From a virus (lineage: Duplodnaviria; Caudoviricetes), in IMG/VR virus record IMGVR_UViG_2843291059_000004, positions 70,479-134,478 of that record: 64,000 nt of DNA; one strand, 5' to 3'. Under the pieces are notes generated by a model. That model saw nothing but the letters and a program-made list of their open reading frames with translations, did not search any database and had not been told where the DNA came from. A program made the translations under genes and the position numbers. Shown piece by piece: positions 7,296-39,436 of this stretch (positions within the stretch are counted from its first letter, which is position 1; each line of letters opens with the position of its first letter).

Positions 7296-7296
7296 T

Positions 7297-7715: not shown

Positions 7716-7807
7716 GCGGTCTTACTCAAGTGGTTGAAGAGAACGGTCCTGAAAACCGTTAGGTCGGCGAACCCGATGCCAGAGTTCGAATCTCTGAGAC
7801 CGCGCCA
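7716..7807 (+). tRNA. tRNA-Ser(TGA), class II
   Basis: GCGGTCT/AGACCGC, G73, CCA, long variable arm; anticodon loop CCTGAAA (C33 instead of U33). Confidence 0.8.
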
Positions 7808-7874
7808 GTCCTTCTCCCGGAGGGCCTATATTATACCGGTTCCCTACCACCGACTAAAAGGTAGGTTTTATTGT

Positions 7875-7982
7875 GAGCTTGTAATGCGAAGAGGTTGAAC
7901 GTGGCGGATGGTAGCAGACATCTGCACGAAGCGAGATTGCTTATTCGTGGATACAGCGCAGGTTCGAATCCTGTCAAGCTCG
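7875..7982 (+). ncRNA. tRNA-like RNA with a non-canonical anticodon arm and a very long variable arm
   Basis: GAGCTTG/CAAGCTC acceptor, GCAGG-TTCGAAT-CCTGT T-arm, 7-bp GCGGATG/CATCTGC arm with 8-nt loop, CACGAA/TTCGTG variable arm; no CCA. Confidence 0.6.
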
Positions 7983-8090
7983 AAGAAAATGGCTATATGA
8001 GCGCGACATATAGCAAGTCCGAAGTCTTGGTTTTAGAATCATGATGTACACATGACTTTCTACTTCTTGAGACACTTAGGCATCATATAG

Positions 8091-8170
8091 CGCAGCGTTG
8101 CCCAGTCAGGTCTACGGCACCGGCCTCATAAGCCGTGTATTCGTTGGTTCAAATCCAACCGCTGTACCCA
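8091..8170 (+). tRNA. tRNA-Met(CAT), initiator-like and degenerate
   Basis: CGCAGCG/CGCTGTA with C1xA72 mismatch, loop CTCATAA, T-arm GTTGG-TTCAAAT-CCAAC, CCA; anticodon stem GGC/GCC rather than GGG/CCC; C73. Confidence 0.75.
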
Positions 8171-9939: not shown

Positions 9940-10334
9940 AAGTTGCCTCACATATACAGAGATGTGTGTGTGCTTCTTGGTTAATTGCAGGTAATTGGTA
10001 AAGCTCTACACTAAAACGGAGTTGGAAACGACAAACGTAAATGTGCGAAAGCAGAAAAAACGTAGAGATGAGCTATGCTGAAATAAAAGCGTCTTATGAC
10101 GTGCTAAGGCTCGTAATAATCCATGTTCATGCAGCCACCACCCGTAACGTCTATATGACAGGATGAGGTTCAACGACTATCTCCTTGTGGGAGAGTAAAA
10201 CCGCAAGCTTATGGCGGAGGAAAAATCAAGCTCCAAATTTATTTTGGATGATGAAATAGTCTATTCACGACAAGAAATTGTGTGGTCGTTTATGCGGCAA
10301 TGTACAGTTGCGATGTACATTAAATACATTCAGA
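9940..10334 (+). mobile_element. group I intron without ORF in terminase (395 nt; boundaries +/-1 nt)
   Basis: P1 AGGT/GCCT with U.G; P AATTGCAGG 9983; Q CATGCAG 10128; R GGTTCAACGACTA 10167; S GAAATAGTCT 10253; P10 AAGTT/AACTT. Confidence 0.85.
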
Positions 10335-16501: not shown

Positions 16502-18085
16502 TAAACTATGTAGTTTACATAAAATAGTCCAGTCGTGATGCAAATCACGATAAAAAATACACATTGAATTGCTGGAAAACCCTAAAACTACAATTACCAA
16601 AACAGAAGGATGAAATATGCCTAGATGGGTGGTCGCGAAAGCAGAAAGAAAATTGTAGATGATGCATGGTTAAAACCTAAACATAAAATAATGGGCAATC
16701 AGCAGCCAAGTTCCGAAAAGGAAAAGGTTCAACGACTATCCGCGTGGGAGCGGTTAGGATGCAAGTGTTTGGCATCCGAAGTGGTGTGCCCCAGTGTTTT
16801 TACTGGGTGAAGATATAGTCTTCACTCGTATGAGAGTACGAGGTTGCTAGATGCAACAAGAACGGAGTAGCGTCCGGTATAATGTTTATCTAATATTTAA
16901 TTTGACCAGATGTTGTGTAGAATGTCTGGCTTTTATTTTGCAAGAAAGGAGGTAGCATGGATGACACCAATGAGAACGACAGAAGACTTCAAAAAAGAAG
17001 TGTTTGATGTAAACCCAAATTTTGAAATTTTATCCGAATATAATGGTCTTCGAAAAAAGATTACCAGGAAATGTAAAGTATGCGGTGATGTACGTGAAGT
17101 ACAGGCAAGAATGTTGCTTGATAATCGTGGGTGTCAAGCATGTGTTGCCTCTAAGCGTGGAGCAGAAAAAAGAAAGTCGCCAATACAATTTTCCACGGAG
17201 CTGTTTGAAGTAAATCCTAATATTGAGTTGTTATCTGAATACACAACAAACAATGCGAGAGTGCATTGTCGTTGTAAACTTGATGGGCATGAGTGGAATG
17301 GCATACCTCATACATTGCTTGATGGACATGGGTGTCCAGAATGTTATCGACGGATTGCAAACAGACGAACGGAAGATGAATTCTTAAAAGAAATGCGTGA
17401 ACGATTTCCTACTATTCATGTTCTTTCAAAATATGTCCGTGTTGCTGTGAAAGTGGATTTTGCATGTGATGTTTGCGGTTACCATTGGACCGCAATTCCT
17501 GATACGATACTTAATAATAAAAATTCTGGTTGTCCAAAATGTGCTGGGAGAGCACATATTTTAGAGTCTGAAATGATAGAACGACTAAGAACGGTTTCTC
17601 CAAGTGTTGAGTATTTGAGCGGATATAAAAATATATTATCTCATGCAAATTTTAAATGTAAGAAATGTGGTTACAAATGGTCAACAGCTGTCAATTCAGT
17701 TCTTGGCGGGCATGGATGTCCAAAGTGTTGTTCTTCTCATGGTGAAGAAAAAGTATGCAATTATCTCGATAGTCATGGCATTGATTACATACGAGAATAC
17801 CGTTTTAAAGATTGTAAAAATGAACGGCAGCTTCCTTTTGATTTCTATATACCATCAAAAAACACTTGCATTGAATACGACGGGCAACAACATTTTATGC
17901 CTGTTAGGTTTAGCAAGAGTGTAACCGAATCCGACTCTATTAGTACATATAAAAGTCAGCAAAAGAAAGATTCTTTAAAAACAGAATATTGTAATCGTAA
18001 TGGAATCAAACTTATCAGAATTCCCTACACAGATTTTGATAATGTAGAAAATATTTTAGATAAACATTTTTCTTAAAAATTTTGG
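16502..18085 (+). mobile_element. group I intron in the major capsid gene (1584 nt) with homing endonuclease
   Basis: P1 GGAT/GTCC(16527) U.G; P AATTGCTGGAAA 16567; Q AATCAGCAGCC 16697; R GGTTCAACGACTA 16726; S AAGATATAGTCT 16810; ends ...TTTGG; in-frame join IPD|KRIYG. Confidence 0.92.
16961..18076 (+). CDS. intron-encoded homing endonuclease: four zinc-ribbon repeats plus a Vsr-like/PD-(D/E)XK domain
   Basis: AAGGAGGT RBS; repeated CxxCG..W..GCPxC; C-terminal PFDFYIP..IEYDGQQH; AT-rich relative to flanks. Confidence 0.8.
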   Translation: MTPMRTTEDFKKEVFDVNPNFEILSEYNGLRKKITRKCKVCGDVREVQARMLLDNRGCQACVASKRGAEKRKSPIQFSTELFEVNPNIELLSEYTTNNARVHCRCKLDGHEWNGIPHTLLDGHGCPECYRRIANRRTEDEFLKEMRERFPTIHVLSKYVRVAVKVDFACDVCGYHWTAIPDTILNNKNSGCPKCAGRAHILESEMIERLRTVSPSVEYLSGYKNILSHANFKCKKCGYKWSTAVNSVLGGHGCPKCCSSHGEEKVCNYLDSHGIDYIREYRFKDCKNERQLPFDFYIPSKNTCIEYDGQQHFMPVRFSKSVTESDSISTYKSQQKKDSLKTEYCNRNGIKLIRIPYTDFDNVENILDKHFS

Positions 18086-24077: not shown

Positions 24078-25067
24078 ATGGCTACAAGAAGTAAACCGCT
24101 GAAGTTATGGGATGCTGAGAAGTTCAAGAACGTGAACCCAGTGTCTTTGAAATACTGGGATAGATATGAGACTGATATGGGCATCCGTGATCTCAGCCCG
24201 TCTACTGTTTACAATTATGAATCGGATTTCAAGCAGTGGATGATTTATGTTTTGGACAATCAGGGTAATGCCCCTGTAACGGAACTTGAAGAAGAAGATA
24301 TTGAGGAATTTCTGTTCTATTGTAAGAAGCACGGAAACAACTCTGCTCGCATGAAACGGCGCATGAGTACGATTTCTGCGCTGTACCGGTATCTTCGCAA
24401 AAAGAAAATCATCAAAGAAAACCCGATGGAGTTTATTGACCGTCCAACCAAGGATGTGGCTGTTGTGAAGCAGACATATCTTACGCCGGATGAGGTCAAG
24501 TTGATGCGAGAGAAGCTGAATGCGTTGGTTGAATCTGCAACCACAGTTCACATGAAAGATAATGCGATGACGCTGCGGTTATACGCCCTGTTCTCGTTGT
24601 CTACGATGGCTCGTGTCAACGCCGTGCGGAATACGCTCTGGAAGTCTATCGACTATGAGAATCGTATGGTGCATGACGTTCTGGAGAAGGAAGGAAAAAT
24701 TGTTGATTTGATGTTCAGCAAGGAAGTTTCTGAGCTTTTAAAAGCGCTGAAGGAATACCGCACTGAGCATGATATTGAGGATGGCGGCTATGTGTTTGTT
24801 GGTACAAAAATCAATGGAGCTTGGATGCCGATTACTTCAAGCACTGCTGGCGACTGGTGTAAGAAGATTGGTGAGATGATCGATGAGCCTACGCTGCACC
24901 CGCATGACTTCCGGCATAGTGGTGCTACCCTGCTGAAGAATGCTGGTATGAGTCTGGAGGACGTCTCTTCCCTGCTCAATCATGCCGGTACAGATGTGAC
25001 CAATAAGTATTACATCAAGAAGGATACGACAAAAATTCAGTCTGCAAAGGATCGGTTTGAGATTTGA
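24078..25067 (+). CDS. tyrosine recombinase (XerC/D-like; YomM-like position)
   Basis: N-terminal SAM-like domain, MAR (R), EKEG (K), HDFRH, LNH, KYY catalytic residues. Confidence 0.9.
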   Translation: MATRSKPLKLWDAEKFKNVNPVSLKYWDRYETDMGIRDLSPSTVYNYESDFKQWMIYVLDNQGNAPVTELEEEDIEEFLFYCKKHGNNSARMKRRMSTISALYRYLRKKKIIKENPMEFIDRPTKDVAVVKQTYLTPDEVKLMREKLNALVESATTVHMKDNAMTLRLYALFSLSTMARVNAVRNTLWKSIDYENRMVHDVLEKEGKIVDLMFSKEVSELLKALKEYRTEHDIEDGGYVFVGTKINGAWMPITSSTAGDWCKKIGEMIDEPTLHPHDFRHSGATLLKNAGMSLEDVSSLLNHAGTDVTNKYYIKKDTTKIQSAKDRFEI

Positions 25068-25611: not shown

Positions 25612-25741
25612 AAGCCATCTTTTATGAGAATTTATTTGGAATAAAATTCAATGAGAGGAGGGCTGGCTTTAAGGAGCTGGCCGCTTCTCTTTTTTGTTTT
25701 GAAAGGAATGTTGAAAATGGAAAAGAGAGGTGACCAACGGT

Positions 25742-28147
25742 ATGGCGGATAACACAAACACCGTAAGTAGTGCTGATACTTCCTCTGTAACGGCCATAAA
25801 GGTCAAGGTCGTTCTTGATACGAGTAAAGCAGAACTCGATAAGCAATTCGAGTCCGTCAAAGAAAAATATAAAAATAGTCCGATTAAGCTGGCCTTTGGG
25901 TTGAATCAGAATGAGACCGCAAAGAACATCAATACCGCTTTGCGTAGTATGATTTCAAGCGGAAAAATCATCACCCCGAAGGTAACGCTTGATGTCAAGA
26001 TTGACCAGAGCAAAGTAACCGCACAGTTAAAGAAAGCTATGGCTTCTGCGGCCAAGCAGACGGTTAAGGTCAACACTGGGAGCGTAAAAAATAGCGCTAA
26101 AGCAAATTCGTCAGATGATGAATTTCAAAAACTTTATCAGCTTGAACAGAAACGAGCAAAACTTCTGGTCGATTCAGCCGCATTAACTGCAAATGGTAAG
26201 AAAGAATCAGAACTTAAAGCTGTAAATGATGAGCTGACTAAAACAAATACTCAGATGAAAGAACTATATAAGAATATAAAAAATGTTCTTTCTGAAAAAC
26301 AAAAATTACAGCTAACAAACATGGATTCCGATGCGCAATTCAAGGCAAGCAGGAAAACATTGAATGGCACAGATAATGCAACTCAAGAGCTAAAAAAACA
26401 GCAAAAAGCAACCGAAGATGACTTAAAACGCACCCTAAAGCAGCAAGAATCTATTTATGAAAATCGTAGAAAGCAAATTCAGGCTCTTGAGAATTATGCC
26501 AAGAATAACTCCAATTATAAAAATTCCAATATTCAAACTTATTTATATGGTGAAGACGGCACTGGTAATACATCTGGCAAAATAAAAGAGCTTCGAGAAC
26601 AGTTATCTCTTATTGAAAATACAGATCCGAGCAAGGCTGTTAAAGACTTTGATAAAAATTGTAAAGCACTTGATGGAACGCTCAATTCTACGAGTCAACA
26701 TCTGAAAGAGCTTGGGTTTGATTTTAGAGATTTAAAGCAAGCCAATGTTGACATGACAAAATTCAAAAGTGTCTACGAACGCGCAACAAAGTTAGAAAAC
26801 TCGATTTCAAATAAAAGCAAATATTCTTTCTTGATTGATAGCATAAATGGCATAAAATCGGCAGCATCTGGTTGTGAAGGCGATGTGACCGAACTCAGCG
26901 CAAGACTATCAAGCCTTGAGGTCGAAGCCAACAGATGTGGTGCGACAACTGAAACTTTAAGTCAAAAGCTGTCTCGTCTATTTAAGGAACACTTCCAGAC
27001 TGCCGTTGCAATGTATGGCGTTGCTATGGTTAAGCAGGGTCTGCGAGAGGTTTATAATAATGTCGTAGAGATAGACACATCTATGACTAACTTAAAAAAA
27101 GTCACAAATGAAACTGAATCGGCATACTCAAGCTTTTTGTCGTCTGCTTCAAGTCAGGCGCGTGAGCTTGGCGCTTCTATCTCGGATGTTATTGATAGTA
27201 CAGCAGAATGGTCTCGTCTAGGCTATACACTGGACGAATCACAAGAGCTTGCAAAGTGGTCCACTGTCCTAAGTAACATTGGTGATGGAATTGATAGTGC
27301 ATCTGACGCAGCTTCTTATCTAGTCTCTATTCTAAAGGGATTTAGAATGGAAGCTGACGAAGTAGAACACGTCGTCAATGTTCTTAACTCGGTGGGTAAC
27401 AACGAACCCATCTCCGAAAGTGGTATTGCGGAGGCACTCGTAAGATCGGCAAGTGCATTATCGGCAGCCGGGAACTCGTTTGAAGAGTCCGTTTCGTTGA
27501 TTAGTGCAGCCAACTCTGTACTTCAGGACCCGGATACCGTAGGCACAACTTTGAAAACAATTTCAATGTATCTGCGAGCCAGTAAGACAGACGCGGAGGC
27601 ATTTGGTGTTTCAGTTGATGACATGGCAGATTCTGTTTCGGAACTTCGAAGCGAGTTGAAGTCTCTGACTGGCGTTGACATTATGAAGGATTCCGCCGGT
27701 ACAGAATTTAAGAGTACATATCAGATCCTAAAAGAGATTTCTGCCGTATGGGATAAACTTACTGATGTTAGTAAAGCTAACGTCACAGAGATGCTTGGTG
27801 GCAAAAGAAACTCGAATGCGGTACTTTCCGTGATCGAGCAATTCTCCATTGCTGAAAAATCAATGGAGGATGCCGCTAACAGTTCTAATTCGGCAATGAC
27901 CGAACAAGAGCGTATGATGGACTCAATTGAGGGTCGTTTAAAGCGGCTTAACGCCAGCTTTGAGAAATTCTCAAACGACGTTCTAAGTAGTGATCTAGTC
28001 AAGTTCTTTGTGACTCTTGCTACGAAGATTGTTGACGCAGCAGACGGGATGGTTAATCTTGCAGGTTCTATTCCGGCCATTACAGCTGCCATCTCTGGCG
28101 TGTTGTCTGTAATGCAGATGAGCGGAAAGCTCAAGAATGGTGCGGGT
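25742..28147 (+). CDS. tail tape measure protein, exon 1 (802 aa, TP901-type core)
   Basis: GAGGTG RBS; EIDTSMTNLKKVT, VGTTLKTISM tape-measure motifs; ends KNGAG at GGT| 5' splice site. Confidence 0.9.
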
Positions 28148-28640
28148 AAAGTTAATATGCCCTCTTATATTTGTTGTGTATAAAAAATATAGGATGCGGC
28201 ACCATGTAAAAATAAAATAGCCCCTAGAGTGCTGGGAAACCCTAAGAGCCATATCGCCTATATTTATATAATGTAGGAATCGAAAGATAGAAACAAGGAT
28301 ATGGATGCTATATGCTGAGATAAAAGCTCGGTTTTATCGTATTGTTAAAATATGGTAATAATTGAGTGCTAAGTAGTATTTACAATGGGCGGTCAGCAGC
28401 CGATCCACTCCCCTATTATATAATGTAGGAGAGCGGAAGGTTCATCGACTAAAAAGGGTCAGTGAGCAACCACTGGAAGGATAGTCAGTTCTGGACGAAA
28501 GTTCAGAAGTCCACCTCAGACGTAACCAGACGACTTAAAGAAGTAGGTGGAATGAGGAGACACGCTGTTCTCTGGCGCGATACAAGTAAGAGAAAAATGA
28601 TTGAATAATTGAACAAAAAGAAAAAGTACACTGTTGTTCG

Positions 28641-28669
28641 TTGACAGCGTACTCTAAAAAGTGTATAAT
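28641..28669 (+). promoter_or_regulatory. consensus sigma-A promoter for the putative antitoxin sRNA
   Basis: TTGACA-17-TATAAT. Confidence 0.85.
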
Positions 28670-28674
28670 AAAAA

Positions 28675-28790
28675 CAGCCAAGGACTCCTATAGACGAAGC
28701 CCTCGGTGAACAGTTTAAAATGCAATGTAAATGCTTGGACACATTCACATCACAGAAAGAGCCACCTACTGCTAATAGGCGGCTCTTTTA
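28675..28790 (+). ncRNA. putative type I antitoxin sRNA (~115 nt)
   Basis: Lies between a consensus promoter and the terminator 28756-28789; contains CATTCACATCAC, complementary to the toxin start region. Confidence 0.6.
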
Positions 28791-28913
28791 CTTATCACGG
28801 CTTTCGCTATGATGATGTAACATCTTGAAAATCTCAAGAAGCGTTTTGACAAAGCCAGCAAAGCCGAAAATCAGCATTGCGACATAGTAGACCGTAGTGA
28901 TCTCAATAGTCAT
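28788..28913 (-). CDS. 41-aa single-TM peptide, putative type I toxin (MTIEITTVYYVAMLIFGFAGFVKTLLEIFKMLHHHSESRDK)
   Basis: GAGGAGTG RBS, hydrophobic N-half with charged tail, long structured 5' leader, own promoter. Confidence 0.7.
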   Translation of the reverse strand: MTIEITTVYYVAMLIFGFAGFVKTLLEIFKMLHHHSESRDK

Positions 28914-29060
28914 TACACATCACTCCTCTCGGTAGACTCACCGAAAGGGAGTAAAAGATATGGCATTCTCCTTCTCGCCTTTCGGCTGAATGGGAGGACG
29001 TTCGCCTATACACGTCTATGAAAGGAAGAAAGTAAACGCGGAATCCTTGACTGCCAGATT

Positions 29061-29090
29061 ATTATACACCCGTCTGTCATATCCTGTCAA
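29061..29090 (-). promoter_or_regulatory. sigma-A promoter for the toxin mRNA
   Basis: TTGACA-18-TATAAT on the minus strand. Confidence 0.75.
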
Positions 29091-29200
29091 TATCACTATA
29101 ATGTAATTTATAATACATAAAAAAGAGATTGCTTTCCTGAAGTTTTCTGGCTATAATATAAGTACAATCGTGTATCCAAAATATATGGAGGTATTTTATT

Positions 29201-29533
29201 ATGGCTAGACCCAAAGGAAGCAAGAACAAAGCAAAGGTTCTTGATGGCGTTGATTATGCAGCGCAGATCGCTGAGAAGAATGCCGCAGCGGAATCTATCG
29301 CTGAAGAAATCGCATCTCTCGGCTCGAATATTGCTGCACTGAATGCTGAGAAAAAAGCAAAAGAAGCAGAGCTGAAAAAACTCAATAAAGAGATTGCAAA
29401 ACTCGAAAAGAAAAAGGCTGATGCCGATGAAAAGATTGCGGCAGAGTTGAATCGCAAAAAGGCAGAAGACATTGTTGCCAACGCACTGGCCAATGGCATG
29501 ACTGCTGAAGATATCGCTGAACTTTTGAAGTAA
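29201..29533 (+). CDS. AT-hook-like/coiled-coil protein (intron cargo)
   Basis: MARPKGSKNK N-terminus; promoter TTGCTT-17-TATAAT 29129-29157; terminator 29550-29587. Confidence 0.8.
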   Translation: MARPKGSKNKAKVLDGVDYAAQIAEKNAAAESIAEEIASLGSNIAALNAEKKAKEAELKKLNKEIAKLEKKKADADEKIAAELNRKKAEDIVANALANGMTAEDIAELLK

Positions 29534-29592
29534 GGTATCATCATAAAACAAAGCCCGACTTCCCTACTACTGGGAGGCCGGGCTTTTGCTAT

Positions 29593-29793
29593 TTAGTCTT
29601 CGAATTTGATAACGCCGCACTGTTTAAGTATGGCTATTATAATTTTAATTGTAGCGCCCATACTTAAACAAATCATATTGGCTATCTGCTCAGTTTGAGA
29701 TTTTCCCTCGAGTCCTCGCATTTTTTGCATTAAAAGATCGATACCGTTGTTCGTTTCAGTCTCTAAGATTTCATTAAATTCTTTATGCGTCAT
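29593..29793 (-). CDS. 66-aa hypothetical protein (intron cargo), paralogue of 31060..31266
   Basis: AAGGAGGT RBS; promoter TTGACA-18-TATAAT 29880-29851. Confidence 0.7.
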   Translation of the reverse strand: MTHKEFNEILETETNNGIDLLMQKMRGLEGKSQTEQIANMICLSMGATIKIIIAILKQCGVIKFED

Positions 29794-29975
29794 AACTGGC
29801 GACCTCCTTTCAGTTGGAATTTTAGCATAGTACATAGTGATTGCTTATCTATTATAGGATATATCGTAATATCTTGTCAATCTCTGTTTTGGATTATTGT
29901 GGAGCCCTGTGTAGCAAAGTTTAGTTGACACTATCTCTGAACCGTGATACACTCTTGTAAAAGGAGTGTTAAATC

Positions 29976-30173
29976 ATGGAAAACAATAAGAAGCATGTGC
30001 CGGATTATGAAATTTCGACTTACAGTAATCGGAAACCGACTGAATATACATATTCAGGGAATGGTAGTTCTGCAAATCCACTGGAAACATATTTGAGAAA
30101 TCATAGCGACAATCATTCAAATTATAATCAAGAAGGAGGAGCAGATGACAGAGATAATCAAACTAATAAATAA
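29976..30173 (+). CDS. 65-aa low-complexity protein (intron cargo)
   Basis: AAGGAG RBS; promoter TTGACA-17-TACACT 29925-29953. Confidence 0.6.
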   Translation: MENNKKHVPDYEISTYSNRKPTEYTYSGNGSSANPLETYLRNHSDNHSNYNQEGGADDRDNQTNK

Positions 30174-30756
30174 TGTAGAGACACTTTTCAATATCTTTGT
30201 TCCAGGTGCTATTTGCGTATGGTGTTACTCTAAGTTATCCTTGCGGAAAATGGAATACCAAGGATATCTCACTCTTAGTATTGCCATTGGTTTCGTAATT
30301 AAATACTGTGTGGATTACGCTGACCGTTTGCTAGGACGGTTTACAATTGCTGGATTTCCGATAATTGTTGTGTACGTTTTAGTTGGAATCATCGGAGCTA
30401 TCATTTTTTATAAAGGAAAGAATTCGATTTGTGTAAGACGCAATGTGTCGAAATTTCTTGGTGTTGACTCTGGTGACAATGTTTGGACAAGGCATCTCGA
30501 TCCAGAAGGAAACTTGCTTACACTCCATATGGATGATGACACATATATTCTTGGATTGTTTGAGAATGCAGACGATGAGTATATTACACTGACGAATTAT
30601 TGCTATGCAAAAACGCCTGCTGGAAAAGATATGGATGAGGCTGCACAAAAGCCATACACTGATGCTGTTTTATGCGTTCCAACAAAGCGAGTTAAGCAAT
30701 TTGAAATTTTGTATCCAAACCCTGAGTCCAAAACTGCAAAGTATGTTCTGCGTTAA
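30145..30756 (+). CDS. 3-TM membrane protein with a C-terminal beta domain (DUF6338-like; intron cargo)
   Basis: IFVPG, three hydrophobic helices, NVW, YILG; terminator 30774-30801. Confidence 0.65.
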   Translation: MTEIIKLINNVETLFNIFVPGAICVWCYSKLSLRKMEYQGYLTLSIAIGFVIKYCVDYADRLLGRFTIAGFPIIVVYVLVGIIGAIIFYKGKNSICVRRNVSKFLGVDSGDNVWTRHLDPEGNLLTLHMDDDTYILGLFENADDEYITLTNYCYAKTPAGKDMDEAAQKPYTDAVLCVPTKRVKQFEILYPNPESKTAKYVLR

Positions 30757-30807
30757 AACAAATACGACCACTACCCTGCTACTTTGTGTAGCAGGGCTTT
30801 TCTTTTG

Positions 30808-30897
30808 TCACCACTCATACCCACAATTCTTACACTTGAACTGTTTGCCGGGCTTTCTGCTTGCCCAGCCCCATATTGCTACATCAACCAACTTTGC
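30808..30897 (-). pseudogene. 3' remnant of the Zn-ribbon gene (AKLVDVAIWGWASRKPGKQFKCKNCGYEW*)
   Basis: Aligns with the C-terminus of 32514..32927. Confidence 0.8.
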
Positions 30898-30923
30898 ATT
30901 TTTTAATCGAGGTGAATTCGTAT

Positions 30924-31076
30924 ATGAAAATTGAAATTGAAACAAAAGAACTCACTGCCTTTCTTGACTATATCAAGGGGCAGCGAGAACCTATTGGTAA
31001 CACTCAAGTATTAGCTGAGGAAGTTGTTAAGGGACTGCCTCAAAAAATCACTTCACAACTCAATCTTCGTACTTGA
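30924..31076 (+). CDS. 50-aa hypothetical protein (MKIEIETKEL...; intron cargo)
   Basis: GAGGTG RBS. Confidence 0.6.
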   Translation: MKIEIETKELTAFLDYIKGQREPIGNTQVLAEEVVKGLPQKITSQLNLRT

Positions 31077-31266
31077 GTACACCAATTTTTTCGAGAGTAG
31101 CAACAAGAGATGCGGTGGCGTCTGTGACTGCCATATTGTACGCAGCGGCGACCATTTGCTCAACTGTTATCTTCTTGTCTTCTCTTTCCGACAGAACGTT
31201 GGCAAAATCATTCAGATTCTTCTCGATCTCGTCCTGAAGAATCTTATTAAATTCTTCTCTAGTCAT
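31060..31266 (-). CDS. 68-aa hypothetical protein (intron cargo), paralogue of 29593..29793
   Basis: AGGAGG RBS; MTREEFNKIL...GVLKYED versus MTHKEFNEIL...GVIKFED. Confidence 0.75.
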   Translation of the reverse strand: MTREEFNKILQDEIEKNLNDFANVLSEREDKKITVEQMVAAAYNMAVTDATASLVATLEKIGVLKYED

Positions 31267-31358
31267 TGTAGTCTCCTCCTTTCTTCTAGTCTTTATTTAA
31301 GTCTACCATAAAAAGACAAAATGTAAAGAGAACGGGAGGTCACATTTGACGTAGAATG

Positions 31359-31660
31359 TTAGAACTCATACCCACATGCCTTACATTTAAACTGCTTTCC
31401 AGGTTTCTTACTCGCAAATCCCCAAATTGCTACATCAACCAGTTTAGAGCCTGCACCTATTTTGTCGAGATGGGGGCATCCGCAGACGGGGCATTTTGGG
31501 GTGTAAACAGGTTTTGCTACTTCTGGAGTTTTGGTTTCAGCGCCTCTTCCCTCTCGGCTCTCACCTTAGCGTCAAAATCGTTAAAGTCTTTTTCGAGTTG
31601 GCTATCACCATCAAACGGATTTGTTACCACACGTCTTGGTTCGCCAGAGCCATAATCAGA
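31359..31660 (-). pseudogene. 5'-truncated, frameshifted copy of the Zn-ribbon gene
   Basis: ..NDFDAKVRAEREE / PVYTPKCPVCGCPHLDKIGAGSKLVDVAIWGFASKKPGKQFKCKACGYEF*; frame change near 31520. Confidence 0.8.
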
Positions 31661-31697
31661 GACACGTTAATTCACATCCTTTTCTTTGGAGGTATTT

Positions 31698-31919
31698 ATG
31701 TATTATTTTGCACATTACGAAAAAGATCAAAACTATTTTGCGTCTGATTGTAATAACTCAAAGGACGGAAGTGTTGAAGCTAAAATTTGGAACAAAGGAA
31801 CTCATTCTTGGGAGCAGAAATGTTTTTCTGCGTTCGAAGAATTCAAAGCTTTTACGGATCAACTATGTATGGCTGACGAGGGATCTCTGTCACGCGGTAA
31901 GATTCAGTATCATCTATGA
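31698..31919 (+). CDS. 73-aa hypothetical protein (intron cargo; 3' end overlaps the convergent gene)
   Basis: GGAGGT RBS, ATG 31698. Confidence 0.5.
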   Translation: MYYFAHYEKDQNYFASDCNNSKDGSVEAKIWNKGTHSWEQKCFSAFEEFKAFTDQLCMADEGSLSRGKIQYHL

Positions 31920-32496
31920 CGATTAAATCGACTTCTTCACTTACGGAGTCATATTTCTTTGCGGTCAAAGAAGTCATTTTCTTTACGAAGTCAACCATAT
32001 TAGAGAAGTCCATATTACTAATATCGTAGTTGCCTTTATGAAACTCTTCTGTGTATACGTCGTGCATTCCAGATGCCACAGCATAGTCTATCCCAATATT
32101 GGGGTGAACTATTTTACTACTTGTGTCTGTATAAAGAATGACGTTATTTCCATCTTCAATAGCCGCATCGATTAGGTAAACAATATTTTTGCTGGTTCTT
32201 GCTGATAATTCCTGTAAGAGAAAATTGAGCTCTTCTTTTACGGACATTAACATCATGTCAGAAATTTTTAAGAGGTCAAGAATTACAATATGTGTTTTCT
32301 GTTTATTATCTAATTCGCCAGCTCCGGTGAATGCAACTGCGTGACCTTGTTTGGTTAGGTAAGATTTCTGAGCAAAGTTGTCGTGCCATTCTTCCACTAT
32401 TTTATTAGTATCAGGGTCCGTTAGTGTAATTGTTGTACACACATCAGTGGATACAACAATACCGTTTTTGTTACAGACAGCTAGTGCTAGAGACAT
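31852..32496 (-). CDS. Ntn-hydrolase/proteasome-beta-like protein (intron cargo)
   Basis: MSLALAV..GIVVSTD N-terminus, K..G.AVAFTG, ASG, SVS..VD pattern. Confidence 0.55.
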   Translation of the reverse strand: MSLALAVCNKNGIVVSTDVCTTITLTDPDTNKIVEEWHDNFAQKSYLTKQGHAVAFTGAGELDNKQKTHIVILDLLKISDMMLMSVKEELNFLLQELSARTSKNIVYLIDAAIEDGNNVILYTDTSSKIVHPNIGIDYAVASGMHDVYTEEFHKGNYDISNMDFSNMVDFVKKMTSLTAKKYDSVSEEVDLIVIDDTESYRVTEIPRQPYIVDP

Positions 32497-32513
32497 TCTA
32501 ATTCACTTCCCTC

Positions 32514-32927
32514 TTACCATTCGTAACCACAGTTATCGCAATGAAACTGAACTCTAGGCTTACGCGCCAGCAGTCCCCAAACGGCGGCGTCAACTAATTT
32601 TGCCGTGGTTGATACTTTGTGAATGTTGGGGCTATGACAGGTTGGGCAGGTAGGCACATACTTCGGATGTTCTTTCTCCTCCAAATCGGCTCTATATTGA
32701 GCGTCAAAGGCATTGGCTTTATCTTGCATCTCTTTAACAAAATTCGGGTCTAATTCTGAGATATCTCTTTTGGGTCTGTTTGTAAACCTCCAATTGATTT
32801 TTTTCTGCTCGCTCATTCCGTTCCATTGAGGCAATAGAATAGTATCTCTCAAACAAAACGCGCACAACAAATCTCTTTTATGGTAATATTTGTCGCAAAA
32901 TGGGCAATACCGTACATATTCTTCCAT
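32514..32927 (-). CDS. double zinc-ribbon protein (intact copy; intron cargo)
   Basis: CPFC..CAFC and CPTC..CDNCGYEW; GAGGAG RBS. Confidence 0.8.
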   Translation of the reverse strand: MEEYVRYCPFCDKYYHKRDLLCAFCLRDTILLPQWNGMSEQKKINWRFTNRPKRDISELDPNFVKEMQDKANAFDAQYRADLEEKEHPKYVPTCPTCHSPNIHKVSTTAKLVDAAVWGLLARKPRVQFHCDNCGYEW

Positions 32928-32950
32928 GATTTCTCTTCTCCTCGAAATCG

Positions 32951-35900
32951 ATATTAACTTTCTTCACGGTAGATGCTAACATTCAAAAGTTACAAATTCA
33001 GACATTTTCTAAAATAAAAGCGTCTCTTGTTGACTTAATCGCGCAATACAAAGCATACAAAAAGGCTTTGGGCGAGACAAATCTTTCCATATCTGATTTT
33101 ATCAAATGGCTAATCTCTGGTCAAGCCCCAATTGATGCTACGAAGTTAAAGATTTTGGCTCTTCGTGGTGCTGCGTTACTTTTGAATATGGCCCTTGGTG
33201 TTGTTACTGGGCTTGTAGTTTCCTCTCTTATTGGTGCGATTACAAGCTATACACAGCGGATTGATACAGCAGCTACAAAAACGAAAGAAGCTGCTGATGC
33301 GGCCAACAACACGACTTCTTCCTTGAAGGATTTAGTCGATGCCTACAAAGAACTTGGTGACAAGTCTGGTTGGAGTACAGAAGATTTTGACCAAGCAAAG
33401 GATATCCAAGAGGAGCTTTTGGCTCTTGCAAAAGAACAAGGCACTCTTGACGAAAACAAAGCAAATCAGCTTGATCTTCAAAATGGAAAATATGAAGAAC
33501 AACTTGGTTTGCTGAAGGATATCACGGAAGAACAGCTCAAAGATTCCGAGTCGAAGTTGATGCAATCCAAGGATGCTCAAAGCAATAAGCTAGTTAAAAC
33601 AGCAAAAGATAACAATCGCTCTCATTTCTTTAGTTCTATTTCTGCAAATGCCAACCTTGGTATTATGAATGAGTTAAAGGATGCGGGGATTGATGTATTC
33701 AATAAGAGCGGTGATTTTGGCGTAAAAGACCTTAATAGTCCAGATTCTATTGCAAAGTATTATTCCGAACTTGGTAGAGCTTTAGATTATATTGTTCAAA
33801 ATACAACTGAAGCACAAAGAGCAGCCGGAGGTGCGTATCATACTGTTTATCAGTATTTAATGGATGAAGAAGCCGCACTTCATGATGATGTGGATGCTTA
33901 CAATGATTCTACCGATGCCATCAACAATAATACGAATGCTCGTAGAAAGCTTCAAGCTGTAGATTTTTGGCAGAATGACAATAATAACAGTATGGATGTT
34001 AGCTTTACTTTTGATAAAGTAAATTCTGCCGTTCAAACACTGGAAGATACAATTGATGGGTTTGATGCTAGTAAACTAAATGAACTCTTATGGGGTACAA
34101 ACGAAGGATTGTCTGATGAGCAAGCTCAAGCTCTCGCAAATCTTCGTAAGGCTCTAACCGACATGGACTTCTCCGCTGATACAAACGGCGTGAATGCGTT
34201 TATCCAAGCACTTGTTCAAGTTGGTATTGTAGCTCAGTCTTCTGCAAATGATGTTGATGCGGTAGCACAAGCTTCTCAGAAGATGGAGGATATCTCCTCT
34301 AAGATTGATGAGATTCAGACTGCTTATAAGAATGCGACCACCGCTATTGAGGAGTACAATAAATATGGCTATTTGAGTGCGGACACACTCCAAACTCTTC
34401 TTAATGAAGACTTCGAGTATCTGAGTTGTCTCGAACTCGTTGATGGTCAGCTTCAGGTGAATACCGAGAAGTATCAGGGTATGATTGCCGCTCAGTATCA
34501 GTCTGCGGCCATGGCTCTTGTTGAGAAAGCAAATGCGGAGCTTGCAAAGATTGCTCAGGGCGAAAAGAAGGATGCAGTCGAGGATGCAACCAAGGCAACA
34601 GAAGACCAAGCAACAGCTTTGACTGAACGGGTCTGTCCTGCCCTTGGCGAGTTTGCAAAAGCATCTATGACAGCCGCTGCAGCACAAGAGTTCTTGGCAA
34701 ATGGAGATGCAGCATGGTCTGTTGACCCAGAAAGGACTAAAGAGGTCTATGCTGGCCTTGCTTCTGGTTTAGATATTTTGGACGCAACTGTTGACCAAAT
34801 TATGGGCAATTCGGATAAGTTCCGTCAGCACATGAATGGTTTTGATAAGGAAACCAAGAACCGGAATAAGAATACTGCCAAATCTGTAACTGATGTAGCT
34901 TCTGCCTTCGATACCTTAAATAAGGCAATGAAGGAGTATAACCAGTATGGTTATCTGTGTGCTGACACAGCAAAGTCTTTGATTGGTCTGGATGATAAGT
35001 TCACGGCTTGCCTAACAAAGCAAGGCGATAAGCTCCAAATCAATGTAGAGCAGTTCCGTAAGTTTGTGAAAGAACAACTCAAAGAAGCGAATGCCGCAAA
35101 AGATGGCGGAAAATCAGCTGATGAGATGAATAAAATTCTGAATTATCTTGATCAGAATGTAGATACAACAACCATCTCTTTTGAGCAGCTGACTGACGCT
35201 ATCAAGGGTTACGGCACTGCGATGGATGAAGCCAAGGAAAAGACGGACGCTATAAAATCCGCATTTTCTGACTTATACAGTGTTGGCTTGAATAAGCAAG
35301 ACAACGATTTTGGGTTCTTAGATTCGGATGATATCGAGAAGAAATTCCAAGCTATCCGTAATTTATATGGTAACACAGATTTGTTTACCAATCAAGCATA
35401 TAAAGATGCTTTGAATCCAGAAACCGGTGAGATTGATTACAATAGCGATGCATTCAAGCAGATGTTTGCTGATTATCTCGCAGGGCTTGCAACAACTGCT
35501 CGTGAGACTGGTGGTGAGGCTGGAGAATATCTTGCTCAAGGTTTTGAGGACGCTGCGGCTAAGATCTCTCAGAATGTGATGAGCATTCGCGAGTACATCG
35601 ACGGTATTGGTTCTTCGATTGAACGTGCCAACAATCAGATTGATGGGTTCCAGAGCGCATTTTCTGACATCCAAGACATTGTTAAAGAGTATAATACCTA
35701 TGGTGGTCTGAGCATTGATAATTATCAGAAGCTCATGAGTCTGAGTGACGACCAAATCAAATGCTTGAAACTTGAAGGCGACCAGATCAAGTTTGATACG
35801 CAGCTTTACAAAGAACTCTTCAAATTAAAGATTCAAGCAATGATTGACGAGTATGACAAGGCTGACCAGACAAAAGCTCTTGCTCAACGACTTCGTGAAT

Positions 35901-38900
35901 TACTTGCGGCAGTTGATAAGGCTGGCGATGGATTTACCAGTGCGGCTGATAAGGCCAAGAATTTCGAAGACACCCTTTCGAATATCAAATCACTTTTATC
36001 TGACTTGATTGGTGTCTTTGAACAGTTCAATACGGACAAGTCCAATGACCTCAAGATTCAGGGCGACGCATGGCTTGACGTGATTGACAAGCGAATCGAT
36101 GCACTGAATGAACAGAATGATGCCCAGGAACGAGCCATTGAACTCTCCAAAGCTCAGGACGCACTCGAAAAAGCCAAAGCTAATAAGACTGTCCATGTTT
36201 ATCATGCCGGCGGAAGTGGCTTCGAGTGGGAGGCTGACCAGAACGCCGTTCGTGATGCACAGTCTACACTGGATGACACGATTCGAAAGAACCGCAAAGA
36301 GGACGAGATTGATCGACTGAACAAACTGAAGAAGGCCGTCCAGGAAAATAACGAGCTGATTGGCTCCAGTTTTGAGGATTATGAGAAGAAGAAGAAATAT
36401 CTCGCAGAGTTCGACAAGATGACCTACGATGATATGATTTCTTACAATGAAAATTGGAAAAACTCTATCCTCGGCAATATGAAATCCACACAGGTCGTCA
36501 CGAATGTCAACGAAATTATCACTAAAATTGAGAAGCTGATTACGACACTTGAGACTCTGAATAATGTGCTGACGTGGATTAGTACGCTTGGAAAGAGCAC
36601 AGACGGTGGCGGACTGACTGGTCTGTTTAGCAAGAATGGTCTGTTTGGCAATATCGGTAATTTCATAAGTACAGCGAAAACAAAGGGGCTCGAAACAGCA
36701 GCGAAGGAAGTAATTGGAACATTCCTAGACAATACCGGTGCGGCACTCGAAGCGAATGCAGACAATCCTATCATTAAAGCGGCAACTGGTCTATGGGATA
36801 AGTTAAAGGGAATTTTCTCTGGTAAAATTGTAGCGACAGGCGTTGAAGCTGGTGTGGACGAGACTCTGGCTACTTTGGCGAAAAAAGAAGTCGTTCAAAA
36901 AGGCGCTGGCAATCTACTCACACGGTTCGGTGGAGCTGCGGCGACAACTGGAGCATCTACAGCGGCGACAACTGGAGCAGGAACTGCCACGGTAACTACT
37001 GGTATTTCTTCTATTCCTGTCGTTGGCGCACTTATTGCGGTCGCTGTAAATAACGCTGTTCAGCAATTCGGTAAGATCAGTAAAGAAAACACCAAGATCT
37101 GGGCAGATCAAAATAGCACGACTGGTGAGAAGATCGTAAGCAGTGTTGGTAACGTGCTCTATCACCTCTCCCCTGTTGAGGGTTGGGATAAGTCGGTTCA
37201 ATATGCTAAGATGGCCGCTGAGGGCGAAGGTCTGTGGCAAAAATTAGAATATGGTGCGAAATCCCTATACTATGCGACTGGCCTTGGTACGATGCTGGAC
37301 AATATCTGGAACACCATCAAGAGTATTCTCAAAGTCTTCGGTGTGAAGTTCAAGGAAAGTGGCGATGGTGTCAGCACATCTAGTTCTGTTTCTGGCAAAA
37401 AGGGTGTTGGCTCGTGGAAGATCTGGCCGTGGAACTGGGGCAAAAAGGCAAAAGGCGATAAGAAAATCAAGAAGTCTGCTCCGTACAATGTTGATGAAGA
37501 AGGCGACGAAATTATCGTCCGTAAGCCTCAGACTGGCCGGATGACCTATCTCGAAAAGGGCGACGGTGTTATTCCTGCAAATGAGACTGAGAATCTGATG
37601 ACGATCGGTAAAAACCCGCTCAAGTGGTTGACTGAAAATGTCGGTAAGATTCTTGGCGCTTCTGCCGCGAAAGATGTCGTAGAAGGCAAGGTCGATGAAG
37701 GGGCTGTCACAAAAGCTTCTCAGGTTCTTGCAAGCTCTGTTGTGAACACTTTCTCTTCTGCATGGAATACCGTGAAGATGAGCACAGAAGACCTGATTGA
37801 CTCCATGAATGACTCGTTCCAGGGCGGGTCAACAAGTGTTACGACGGCTGCTGGCACCATTCTTAGCCGAGTCAAGACCATGTTTGGCAAGGCCAATATG
37901 GGGAAACTGTTGGGCAGCTTCAGCTCCGGTGTTTCTGGCGCTATCTCAAAGAGCGCAAAAGAGTATTCTTCTACTACGGAACTGTTGAGTGGTACAAAGA
38001 GCAAAACCATCGACACAATGAACAAGATGCGGTCTACGTTTGAAAGTACGTGGGCTTCTGTGGCAAAAGAGACTGGCGTAAGCAAAGATAAGATCACTTC
38101 GATTAGTTCTGAAATGTTCAGCAAGATGGAAGCCTTGGTGAATCAGACGTACGATGCGATCGACAGCAACGCCGGTATGAGTTCTGACCAACTGAATGAC
38201 ATCACAAAGAGTTTGTTCCAGTCGATGCAGAGCATTTACACTTCTGGTTGGAATGCCGTCTATGCTACTTCTACTGGCATGTCTCAGGAAACCGCAAATA
38301 CACTGAATTCCGCATATAAGTCCTCTTCTGATGGCTGCACCAAGGCAATGGATACCATCCGTAACACGATGGTCGGCAGCTGGGAGCAGTGCGGCGGTGG
38401 CGTTCAGAATTTGGCAAATGGTACCTACCAGACACTGAGTAAAGCATGGGCAGATTCCAGCGGAAGCGCAGAGAAGATGCTCTATGATACCCGTGCCTGC
38501 TTTGATTCTGGCTGGGGTGCTGTGGAACAGGGTGTCAGCAGTTTGGCAAATAACCCGAAAGACAAGCTTTCAACAGCTTGGGCAGAAATTACTTCTCAGA
38601 GTAATGCTACATTTGGTGCGGAAGGTACACTGAAGACCGATGCAGACAATGCTTGGAAGAATGTGGAGCCGGGCGCTACGAACTTGTCGAAGAATATGCA
38701 GTGGACCATGGATCAGGCTTACCTCGCTACAAAGCAGGGCTGCTCTGATACCGTCAATTCTGTCAATACAAACCTTAATTCGACGTCAGCAGGTTTCAGT
38801 GCGATTGCCAGCGCAATTGATGCTGTCAACAAAAAAGCATCCGATTCGGAAGAAGTTGCAAAGAATACAGGACACGCATGGTATGAATGGGTGCTGAATC

Positions 38901-39436
38901 CAGTTGGCACTTTGCTTGACACGGTTACAAAATATAACACAGAAGACAAATCAAAGAACAATTTTTTACAAAATGCTGTTCATACAGTCACACATCCGAT
39001 CAGTTCGGTTGTAGAATCAGTAAAATACCTTGGAAATGCTGCAAAGGATTTCTTTGGTGGTCTATTTGGCAAACACGCTTCCGGCTTAAAGTCTGCATCT
39101 AAGAGTCATTTCGCCAATGTTGACGAGCTTGGCCCTGAGCTTCTGGTTCGTAAGCCACAATCTGGTCGTTACACTTACCTCGAAACTGGTGATGGTGTGG
39201 TGCCTGCTGATATTACATCGAAATTGTTTGAGATGGGTGGCAACCCGAACAAGTGGTTCTCTGAACAGATGGCTAAGTATGGTTCTCAGGCGATTACTAC
39301 GAAGAGCACTGGCAACACCAGTTTCTCGACTGGTAATATTGTGATCAACAATCCTGTTGGCAACTCTGAGGATCTGGCTTCTGAAATCAAGAAGAACTTC
39401 TCGACCCGGATGGCGCAGGAATGGAATAAGCGCTAA
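32951..39436 (+). CDS. tail tape measure protein, exon 2 (2161 aa; spliced product ~2963 aa)
   Basis: Frame open from 32930; no convincing RBS at TTG 33068; helical Ala/Thr-rich with W-periodic repeats; joins as KNGAG|ILTFFTVD. Confidence 0.88.
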   Translation: MLTFFTVDANIQKLQIQTFSKIKASLVDLIAQYKAYKKALGETNLSISDFIKWLISGQAPIDATKLKILALRGAALLLNMALGVVTGLVVSSLIGAITSYTQRIDTAATKTKEAADAANNTTSSLKDLVDAYKELGDKSGWSTEDFDQAKDIQEELLALAKEQGTLDENKANQLDLQNGKYEEQLGLLKDITEEQLKDSESKLMQSKDAQSNKLVKTAKDNNRSHFFSSISANANLGIMNELKDAGIDVFNKSGDFGVKDLNSPDSIAKYYSELGRALDYIVQNTTEAQRAAGGAYHTVYQYLMDEEAALHDDVDAYNDSTDAINNNTNARRKLQAVDFWQNDNNNSMDVSFTFDKVNSAVQTLEDTIDGFDASKLNELLWGTNEGLSDEQAQALANLRKALTDMDFSADTNGVNAFIQALVQVGIVAQSSANDVDAVAQASQKMEDISSKIDEIQTAYKNATTAIEEYNKYGYLSADTLQTLLNEDFEYLSCLELVDGQLQVNTEKYQGMIAAQYQSAAMALVEKANAELAKIAQGEKKDAVEDATKATEDQATALTERVCPALGEFAKASMTAAAAQEFLANGDAAWSVDPERTKEVYAGLASGLDILDATVDQIMGNSDKFRQHMNGFDKETKNRNKNTAKSVTDVASAFDTLNKAMKEYNQYGYLCADTAKSLIGLDDKFTACLTKQGDKLQINVEQFRKFVKEQLKEANAAKDGGKSADEMNKILNYLDQNVDTTTISFEQLTDAIKGYGTAMDEAKEKTDAIKSAFSDLYSVGLNKQDNDFGFLDSDDIEKKFQAIRNLYGNTDLFTNQAYKDALNPETGEIDYNSDAFKQMFADYLAGLATTARETGGEAGEYLAQGFEDAAAKISQNVMSIREYIDGIGSSIERANNQIDGFQSAFSDIQDIVKEYNTYGGLSIDNYQKLMSLSDDQIKCLKLEGDQIKFDTQLYKELFKLKIQAMIDEYDKADQTKALAQRLRELLAAVDKAGDGFTSAADKAKNFEDTLSNIKSLLSDLIGVFEQFNTDKSNDLKIQGDAWLDVIDKRIDALNEQNDAQERAIELSKAQDALEKAKANKTVHVYHAGGSGFEWEADQNAVRDAQSTLDDTIRKNRKEDEIDRLNKLKKAVQENNELIGSSFEDYEKKKKYLAEFDKMTYDDMISYNENWKNSILGNMKSTQVVTNVNEIITKIEKLITTLETLNNVLTWISTLGKSTDGGGLTGLFSKNGLFGNIGNFISTAKTKGLETAAKEVIGTFLDNTGAALEANADNPIIKAATGLWDKLKGIFSGKIVATGVEAGVDETLATLAKKEVVQKGAGNLLTRFGGAAATTGASTAATTGAGTATVTTGISSIPVVGALIAVAVNNAVQQFGKISKENTKIWADQNSTTGEKIVSSVGNVLYHLSPVEGWDKSVQYAKMAAEGEGLWQKLEYGAKSLYYATGLGTMLDNIWNTIKSILKVFGVKFKESGDGVSTSSSVSGKKGVGSWKIWPWNWGKKAKGDKKIKKSAPYNVDEEGDEIIVRKPQTGRMTYLEKGDGVIPANETENLMTIGKNPLKWLTENVGKILGASAAKDVVEGKVDEGAVTKASQVLASSVVNTFSSAWNTVKMSTEDLIDSMNDSFQGGSTSVTTAAGTILSRVKTMFGKANMGKLLGSFSSGVSGAISKSAKEYSSTTELLSGTKSKTIDTMNKMRSTFESTWASVAKETGVSKDKITSISSEMFSKMEALVNQTYDAIDSNAGMSSDQLNDITKSLFQSMQSIYTSGWNAVYATSTGMSQETANTLNSAYKSSSDGCTKAMDTIRNTMVGSWEQCGGGVQNLANGTYQTLSKAWADSSGSAEKMLYDTRACFDSGWGAVEQGVSSLANNPKDKLSTAWAEITSQSNATFGAEGTLKTDADNAWKNVEPGATNLSKNMQWTMDQAYLATKQGCSDTVNSVNTNLNSTSAGFSAIASAIDAVNKKASDSEEVAKNTGHAWYEWVLNPVGTLLDTVTKYNTEDKSKNNFLQNAVHTVTHPISSVVESVKYLGNAAKDFFGGLFGKHASGLKSASKSHFANVDELGPELLVRKPQSGRYTYLETGDGVVPADITSKLFEMGGNPNKWFSEQMAKYGSQAITTKSTGNTSFSTGNIVINNPVGNSEDLASEIKKNFSTRMAQEWNKR

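Follow-up and report, generated by a model that had tools for sequence, protein, structure and literature searches.

The window analysed here, 64,000 nt of the IMG/VR virus record IMGVR_UViG_2843291059_000004 (positions 70,479 to 134,478; Duplodnaviria, Caudoviricetes; provirus is the classification of the source record), comes from an SPbeta-like gut prophage in which the gene of the tape-measure protein (TMP) is split by an intervening segment, 28148..32950. This segment is probably one group I intron in a single TMP gene, with a cargo of genes that is dispensable to the ribozyme. If 25730..28147 and 32951..39436 are joined in phase 0, they form a single open frame of 2967 codons (…SGKLKNGAG^ILTFFTVDAN…; here and below the caret marks the predicted splice site), as an earlier note on this DNA had claimed for the removal of exactly this segment. 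In the unspliced form the upstream open reading frame (ORF; 25730..28183, 817 aa) continues for 11 codons into the segment, up to a stop codon at 28181-28183, and the downstream frame, on the same strand, opens at 32930 and runs to 39436; the earliest in-frame start-like codon in the second exon of the window is a TTG at codon 40, without a ribosome-binding site. Uninterrupted TMPs are found in Brevibacillus phage Sundance (2528 aa) and Enterocloster phage PMBT24 (1508 aa), and the alignment with the latter spans the predicted junction, between two hydrophobic segments. Judged from the sequence and from the comparison with related loci presented below, the segment looks like an intron that splices.

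The first 449 nt of the segment form a conserved ribozyme block with an AGGAGA-like remnant of a ribosome-binding site at its end. The Rfam model RF00028 (Intron_gpI) was aligned by cmscan (5.4-kb search) to 28161..28507 over its complete length (model positions 1-253; 24.6 bits, E = 0.0035). All helices written by hand, from P1 to P9.2, are complementary in the window, with the exception of a single A·C in P9.2 (P3: 4/4 pairs, P4: 6/6, P5: 3/3, P8: 5/5, and likewise P6 and P6a). P7 is formed by GACTA (28447-51) and TAGTC (28482-86) with 5/5 pairs, and the P3/P7 pseudoknot and the conserved P7 sequence expected to form the guanosine-binding site are present, so that the group I core with P7, which the earlier note had placed at the 5' end of the intron, is recovered both by the model and by hand. 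Sequences typical of group I introns were identified for P7 (GGUUCAUCGACUAAA and GAUAGUC) and P4 (UGCUGG/UCAGCA); P7.1/P7.2 was not seen in the hand-drawn ribozyme. Among 56 distinct ribozyme variants from the type A relatives defined below, 99.3% of the helix cells are paired, compared to 36-45% with slid partners. Three pairs changed on both sides (A-U to G-C in P2, G-C to A-U in P9.2 and one pair in P6a), and nearly all other helix changes are wobble-compatible. The core helices P3 to P8 either stay constant or vary only in ways that keep pairing, with G·U replaced by A-U or G-C in P3. Eight relatives (L006, L023, L025, L053, L055, L059, L072 and L074) carry an insertion of ~400 nt in the P6a loop (intron nt ~256-660; window equivalent 28403-28438), in which no convincing ORF was seen.

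The splice-site pairings connect the two ends of the segment. P1 consists of GGGT (28144-47) and GCCC (28159-62), with a U·G pair exactly at the 5' splice site, and can be prolonged by a 7-bp extension (ATGGTGC 28137-43 / GCACCAT 28199-205). The 11 nt enclosed between the strands of P1, AAAGTTAATAT (28148-58), are the exact reverse complement of ATATTAACTTT (32951-61), which follows G32950. Only these two copies of the P10 motif exist in the window, even with <=1 mismatch allowed, and the chance of an exact 11-mer at a fixed place is ~2e-7. The U·G pair of P1 and the exact, window-unique P10 match over 4.8 kb behind a terminal G confirm what had been read from the sequence earlier. The continuous 15-nt guide is predicted to put the last base of exon 1 beside the first base of exon 2, which is the canonical group I layout; only the length of P10 is unusual. 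P1 (GGGU/GCCC) is unchanged in 75 type A and 25 type B loci, and P1 together with the exon strand of its extension is invariant across the 56 ribozyme variants. Additionally, GAGGAGA (28552..28558) might pair over a long range with TCTCCTC (32934-40), which lies close to the 3' splice site; both motifs are invariant among the relatives. A 3'-terminal hairpin can be drawn for many, not all, of the 29 classes of type A 3' ends, but it is AT-rich and its plus-strand fold is no better than that of the minus strand.

Relatives were collected by an IMG/VR search with the last 306 aa of exon 1, from which 80 of 131 related stretches were retained; 75 loci that hold both TMP halves, the window included, constitute the type A set. 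The halves lie apart in all 75 loci, separated by introns of 1870 to 6128 nt with ~60 different lengths, and in all of them the joined frame is open over ~2900 codons. The 5' boundary GCGGGT^AAAGTTAATATGCCC is invariant and the 3' boundary always reads G^(A/G)T(A/G)TT(A/T)(A/T)CTTT. The first 449 nt of the intron are ~94-97% identical in all loci, and unrelated cargo follows past nt 449. This conservation persists where the identity of the adjoining N-terminal TMP half (TMP-N) falls to 54-60% at the protein level. It extends for a short distance into both exons: identity reaches 0.93 or more over the final 60 nt of exon 1, compared to ~0.7 further 5', and the mean pairwise nucleotide identity of 43 distinct exon 2 starts amounts to 0.90 for nt 1-10, 0.60 for nt 11-20 and ~0.4 beyond. 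Exon 2 variants with G at +1 or G at +3 form G·U pairs with the guide and are wobble-compatible. The same boundaries with variable cargo (1.4-5.7 kb), which the earlier note had proposed to look for in related phages, are thus seen in 75 of 75 loci. In total, more than 100 related phage contigs show this layout, with gene loads that differ. Complete contigs of phage size (125-137 kb) are common among the relatives; the only carriers with a possible link to a host are a contig of a Faecalibacterium metagenome-assembled genome (L159) and one NCBI contig of 2.76 Mb (GCA_041328415.1, locus L164).

A second intron type (type B) was found at the homologous TMP position in the fecal contig MT837120.1 (L001) and in 24 IMG/VR loci, where the TMP-N alignment stops exactly at the boundary and a homologue of the C-terminal TMP half is located downstream. 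Its geometry is that of type A (GGGT, then 11 nt, then GCCC), its 11 nt are TTCATGATTGT, and its exon 2 frame starts with G^ACAATCA…, the complement of the 7 guide bases beside P1 (12 loci reach that far); ACAGTCA and ACAATCG, which also occur there, can still pair with the guide through wobbles. The guide and the start of exon 2 have changed jointly between the two types, i.e. the predicted P10 covaries (11 bp in type A, 7 bp in type B). Conservation or covariation of P1 and P10 in relatives, without which the earlier note would have given up the intron, is therefore seen in both forms: the two helices are conserved, and P10 also covaries between the types. The type B core reveals compensatory variation in several hairpins; P3 (CCGAC/GUCGG), P6, P7 and P8 could be placed by hand, with P7 (GAGCA/UGCUC) differing from that of type A by two compensatory pairs, and the hand assignment yielded no convincing P4. 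In the 3'-terminal hairpin of type B, a conserved CGACCA loop is closed by stems of 4-5 different sequences that covary, and one U·G pair in it is possible on the plus strand only.

The segment could also separate two genes that are translated independently, into proteins of 817 aa and ~2100 aa. The 449-nt RNA would then be left over from a former ribozyme, or would act in regulation or processing, and the boundary motifs would be kept for other reasons, for instance as promoter or recombination boxes. Every public copy is annotated as two genes by gene callers, there are terminators inside the gap, neither an allele lacking the intron nor a protein across the junction has been recorded, and ATATTA on the minus strand resembles a -10 box in front of the Zn-ribbon gene described below. 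We nonetheless consider this explanation unlikely. Exon 2 could hardly serve as an independent gene. In all 57 distinct variants of its start, the reading frame is already open at the splice site, in several directly behind a stop codon; a start codon with a Shine-Dalgarno sequence is not conserved among them, and in some the first ATG, GTG or TTG comes as late as codon 77, 88 or 105. A frame that opens exactly at the motif, with neither a conserved start nor a ribosome-binding site, is not what two separate genes would predict, and this model would leave the 15-nt guide, unbroken as it is, without a role, as it would the U·G pair and the G at the intron end. Type B, moreover, changes the guide and the exon 2 start together, and the homologous TMPs are unbroken across the site. 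The exon 2 motif was ruled out as a minus-strand -10 box, as it reads GTATTA in 14 loci and is accompanied by no conserved -35 element.

Several observations weigh against the intron that we propose. P1 proper has only 4 bp. The RF00028 score of 24.6 bits lies below the Rfam gathering score of 50 bits, so that the locus is silent at that threshold; the Infernal check suggested by the earlier note has found the core and aligned the full model, albeit weakly, and the low score is mainly due to the 170-nt P5 extension and the P1/P2 region. Type B gave no Rfam match, even at E up to 1-10. The covariation of the ribozyme is only modest because the copies are ~95% identical, the guide shows no covariation within type A, and T at +6 or +7 of exon 2 (ATATTAT, ATATTTA) produces a mismatch inside P10. 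Inside the intron there is at least one strong intrinsic terminator on the TMP strand (30774-96), together with opposing transcription units. Finally, an intron-less allele, which would fix the junction independently, was not found among the 75 loci, in IMG/VR or in the JGI metagenomes. Exact scans of viral and metagenome contigs for the predicted ligated junctions returned chance matches only, with no TMP homology, and a 70-aa junction-spanning peptide gave only half-matches in a set of 5.8 billion protein clusters, one of which (P0241, 71% coverage) simply continues into the intron; this search was limited to 2000 aa, a length that a complete intron-less TMP would exceed.

Between the ribozyme and the far splice site lie 4.3 kb of small genes, 9 of which are plausible, on both strands, in agreement with the number given in the earlier note. 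Everything from P9.2 to the last ~25 nt would be cargo that the ribozyme does not need. The cargo proteins contain no LAGLIDADG, GIY-YIG, HNH, His-Cys or PD-(D/E)xK domain, and the claim that a recognisable homing endonuclease is missing stands, as searches of Pfam, PHROGs and PADLOC gave no match to such a family. Every copy of the intron carries two particular genes. The first of these universal genes (110 aa) is present in 75/75 type A loci and in type B, and public data contain 375 clusters of it; its start lies, in 16 loci, ~10 nt past the ribozyme block (intron nt ~460), behind the AGGAGA-like end, and the position right after the ribozyme is the classic place of an intron ORF. The second encodes a Zn-ribbon protein, is found in 75/75 loci, often in several copies, and has its ribosome-binding site and start codon abutting the 3' splice site. 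Only generic coiled-coil or Zn-ribbon likeness was detected for the universal proteins (Pfam, PHROGs, PADLOC, ESM Atlas, Foldseek), and a Foldseek search with the AlphaFold model of the Zn-ribbon protein (pLDDT 81.5) revealed no nuclease-like fold. Both look like ancestral intron genes. The idea of the ribozyme as a landing pad for moron genes thus fits the part of the cargo that varies at fixed boundaries, but not the two apparently ancestral genes present in every copy. The minus strand of 30808-30945 encodes a 45-aa fragment of the Zn-ribbon family found at the 3' end, of which relatives possess up to several full copies; the multiple copies suggest that the right end of the cargo has duplicated or recombined more than once.

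The variable genes are predicted to be of the toxin-antitoxin and defence-like kind. In relatives they include Panacea-domain antitoxins with their partners, DUF3800 proteins and an aspartyl protease; for the 214-aa protein the sole functional hint is a weak lead to proteasome/Ntn-like enzymes. The convergent module at 28641-29090, which separates the ribozyme from the universal 110-aa gene and combines promoters on both strands, a shared terminator and the 41-aa gene, looks like a type I toxin-antitoxin system. A promoter-like site inside exon 2 (33096-33124; TTGACC, 17 nt, TAAAAT) is a possible promoter of the Zn-ribbon operon, and part of the cargo expression would therefore hinge on exon sequence. 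The features are collected in Table 1.

Table 1. Features of the split TMP locus (window coordinates unless a relative is named)
Feature	Position	Strand	Remarks
YonO-like single-chain RNA polymerase	637..3420	+	PF05183, E 4.8e-14; tblastn to SPbeta-group yonO, E ~1e-16
TMP exon 1	25730..28147	+	806 codons; PF10145 PhageMin_Tail
5' exon strand of P1 and its extension	28137..28147	+	GGGT 28144-47; ATGGTGC 28137-43
Conserved ribozyme block	28148..28596	+	P1, P2, P3, P4-P6 with large P5 extension, P7, P8, P9, P9.1, P9.2
Internal guide	28148..28162	+	11 nt for P10 (28148-58), then GCCC (28159-62) for P1
GAGGAGA	28552..28558	+	invariant; no start codon following
Promoter, sigma-70-type consensus	28641..28669	+	12/12; points into the cargo
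Terminator-like sites	28678-28706 and 28769-28782		bidirectional terminator of the convergent module
41-aa peptide gene	28788..28913	-	phrog_23825, E 3e-4
Promoter	29090-29061	-	12/12; serves the convergent module of the 41-aa gene
Universal intron gene 1	29201..29533	+	110 aa; basic N-terminus (MARPKGSKNK), coiled coil
80-aa gene	29593..29835	-	cluster 13; paralogue of 31060-31266
Promoter of the 80-aa gene	29880-29851	-	12/12
65-aa ORF	29976..30173	+	5' of the membrane-protein gene; called as a gene in relatives
203-aa predicted membrane protein	30145..30756	+	variable cargo, 49/75 loci
Terminator-like hairpin, strong intrinsic type	30774..30796	+	9 bp, 6 GC, T-run
~68-71-aa gene	30861..31076	+	cluster 9, 24 loci
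68-aa gene	31060..31266	-	cluster 13
214-aa gene	31852..32496	-	29 loci
Universal intron gene 2	32514..32927	-	137-aa double Zn-ribbon protein
Terminal G (omega-G)	32950	+	conserved in 29/29 distinct type A 3' ends and every type B 3' end
TMP exon 2	32951..39436	+	2161 codons
Exon 2 strand of P10	32951..32961	+	complement of guide 28148-58
Promoter-like site in exon 2	33096..33124	-	10/12; TTGACC, 17 nt, TAAAAT, with TG; faces the cargo
Relatives with re-interrupted exon 1	L024 and L025 8688-10000; L065 10580-12405; L159 upstream of 8001

We propose the following mechanism. During lytic growth, the YonO-like polymerase would transcribe the late operon, TMP included, straight across the cargo. 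The guide (28148-62) would pair with the end of exon 1 (P1, with its U·G pair) and, via the 11-bp P10, with the start of exon 2 located 4.8 kb away, and guanosine-initiated splicing would join …GCGGGT to ATATTAAC…, to yield a TMP of 2967 aa. The cargo genes would be expressed independently, from internal promoters on both strands, and phages would exchange the non-ancestral ones by recombining within the two conserved flanks, the ribozyme on one side and the 3' end on the other. In this way the intron would both store accessory genes and provide a point at which TMP halves recombine. YonO is highly processive and transcribes the SPbeta late genes as a single operon (PMC5467207); the YonO-like enzyme of the window is likely the late-gene polymerase and could read past the terminators in the cargo. 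Three types of exon 1 and ten types of exon 2 were distinguished among the TMP halves, and nearly all combinations were seen; because the types combine almost freely, the intron appears to be a joint for the reassortment of TMP halves.

We speculate further, and only tentatively, that the intron is no parasite but has become a fixed and obligatory organ of these phages, in which the long P10 and the type-specific RNA elements at the 3' end bridge the 2-6 kb between a ribozyme of 450 nt and its splice site, past opposing transcription units. It could then offer a safe harbour for the exchange of defence, toxin-antitoxin and exclusion genes and allow the N- and C-terminal halves of TMP to reassort, a form of exon shuffling in a bacteriophage, and the universal proteins could be new helpers of splicing, RNA bridging or recombination.

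The two exons might instead be joined in trans: the transcript of exon 1 and the ribozyme would end at an internal terminator, a second transcript started in the cargo would bring the 3' splice site and exon 2, and P10, perhaps with GAGGAGA/TCTCCTC, would hold them together. An arrangement of this kind would suit a P10 that is unusually long for a group I intron, a catalytic core that lies entirely in the 5' piece, and the terminator-like sites on the plus strand after the ribozyme (28769-82) and in the middle of the cargo (30774-96). We regard it as quite improbable, as no conserved plus-strand promoter is visible 5' of the 3' splice site, where the sequence is antisense to diverse Zn-ribbon genes, and a processive polymerase of the YonO type makes read-through plausible (PMC5467207). 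A decayed intron that no longer splices efficiently in this lineage and leaves a broken TMP in defective prophages would agree with the provirus class of the record, but it is very improbable in view of more than 1300 TMP-N protein clusters (one of them on 472 contigs), of both exons being open over ~2900 codons in 75/75 loci, of the visible constraint on the ribozyme and the P10 footprint, and of the many complete contigs of 125-137 kb. Excision or inversion of the 4.8-kb block at the DNA level by a site-specific recombinase is hardly credible: the boundaries do carry an exact 11-bp inverted repeat and a tyrosine recombinase gene (24078-25067) lies two genes 5' of TMP, but inverted repeats would lead to inversion rather than excision, the inverted form does not restore the frame, the same recombinase is encoded 5' of the uninterrupted TMP of Sundance, and no contig with an excised junction was found in IMG/VR or the JGI metagenomes.

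Other observations concern the surroundings of the split TMP gene. The recombinase gene (PF00589, E 1e-20) is positioned within the tail module, and the recombinase gene of Sundance is likewise located 5' of its unbroken TMP. Two more group I introns are predicted in the late region of the window, a strong one at 16506..16842 (Rfam, 80.7 bits) and a weak one at 9962-10284 (22.6 bits in the search of the own genome). Exon 1 itself is interrupted again in some relatives. One insertion, of ~1.3 kb at residue 605/606, contains an ORF of 384 aa that matches nothing in Pfam, and its 5' end, GGT^AAAGTATATGCCGAC, resembles the start of the main intron; another insertion, of ~1.8 kb, occurs at residue ~693. 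These extra TMP-N insertions gave no Rfam match at E up to 1-10. Five tRNA genes are clustered at 7208-8167, between the gene of the YonO-like polymerase and the structural genes. In the Enterocloster phages CB457P2 and CB473P3, the polymerase matches in 2-3 pieces, spread over 3-5 "hypothetical proteins", and the gene may be interrupted there too.

The earlier note had compared the segment to the introns of hexacoral mitochondria. These are indeed multi-gene giant group I introns, but the comparison should extend to IStrons and to the introns in TMP genes of Bacillus cereus prophages. IStrons (CdISt1, BcISt1 and relatives) are Firmicutes elements of ~2 kb (BcISt1: 1915-1916 bp) with a 5' group I ribozyme of class IA2 and an insert that is an IS200/IS605- or IS607-type transposon, which moves the element to many sites (Tourasse et al. 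2014, PMC4227781). Their insertion is harmless because the whole element is spliced from the host mRNA. The element described here shares the 5' ribozyme and the long protein-coding insert between the core and the 3' splice site, but it occupies one fixed TMP site, and its 1.4-5.7 kb of cargo consist of accessory genes that vary, lie on both strands and have promoters of their own. No transposase (TnpA/TnpB, IS200/IS605 or IS607) was found among the cargo proteins of the window or the common cargo clusters of the relatives; in place of the many genomic sites typical of IStrons, we always observed one TMP site, and the complement of the guide occurs once in the window. The marks of a mobile intron, an endonuclease and a sporadic distribution with intron-less alleles, were not observed either.

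Group I introns have been described in the TMP genes of Bacillus cereus-group prophages (TMP IVS1-3; Tourasse and Kolstø 2008, PMC2504315). Here, too, the TMP of a Firmicutes prophage is interrupted, and at several sites per TMP (residues ~605 and ~693 in the relatives). The Bacillus cereus TMP introns are ordinary and compact, with or without an endonuclease gene, while the intron proposed here bears a multi-gene, bidirectional and variable load and is apparently fixed in the lineage. The giant group I introns of hexacoral mitochondria (ND5-717, COI-884) are many kb long and hold several functional genes, and for one hexacoral lineage removal by back-splicing has been reported (PMC6545197). 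The likeness lies in many-kb, multi-gene group I introns that are obligatory parts of an essential gene. The hexacoral cargo consists of conserved mitochondrial genes, encoded on the same strand, in an internal loop of the core. The hexacoral introns are organellar, whereas here the cargo follows an intact core, varies, is partly antisense and has its own promoters. In the sunY (nrdD) intron of phage T4 (~1 kb), a complete 5' core is followed by one endonuclease-type ORF before the 3' splice site; the P10 described here is far longer (11 bp). A literature search revealed no group I intron of a phage that bears several genes, varying in content and lying on both strands.

If the segment is indeed spliced, bacterial group I introns could hold kilobases of independently transcribed genes on both strands; to our knowledge, such loads have so far been documented only for organelles and, with transposon cargo, for IStrons. 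It would also mean that prophages of a family very common in the human gut (472 contigs carry one single TMP-N cluster) keep accessory genes in a hotspot of a new kind, and explain why gene callers split giant TMP genes. Splicing over such a distance would moreover provide a natural system for long-range choice of the 3' splice site and for the intron-mediated shuffling of virion modules.

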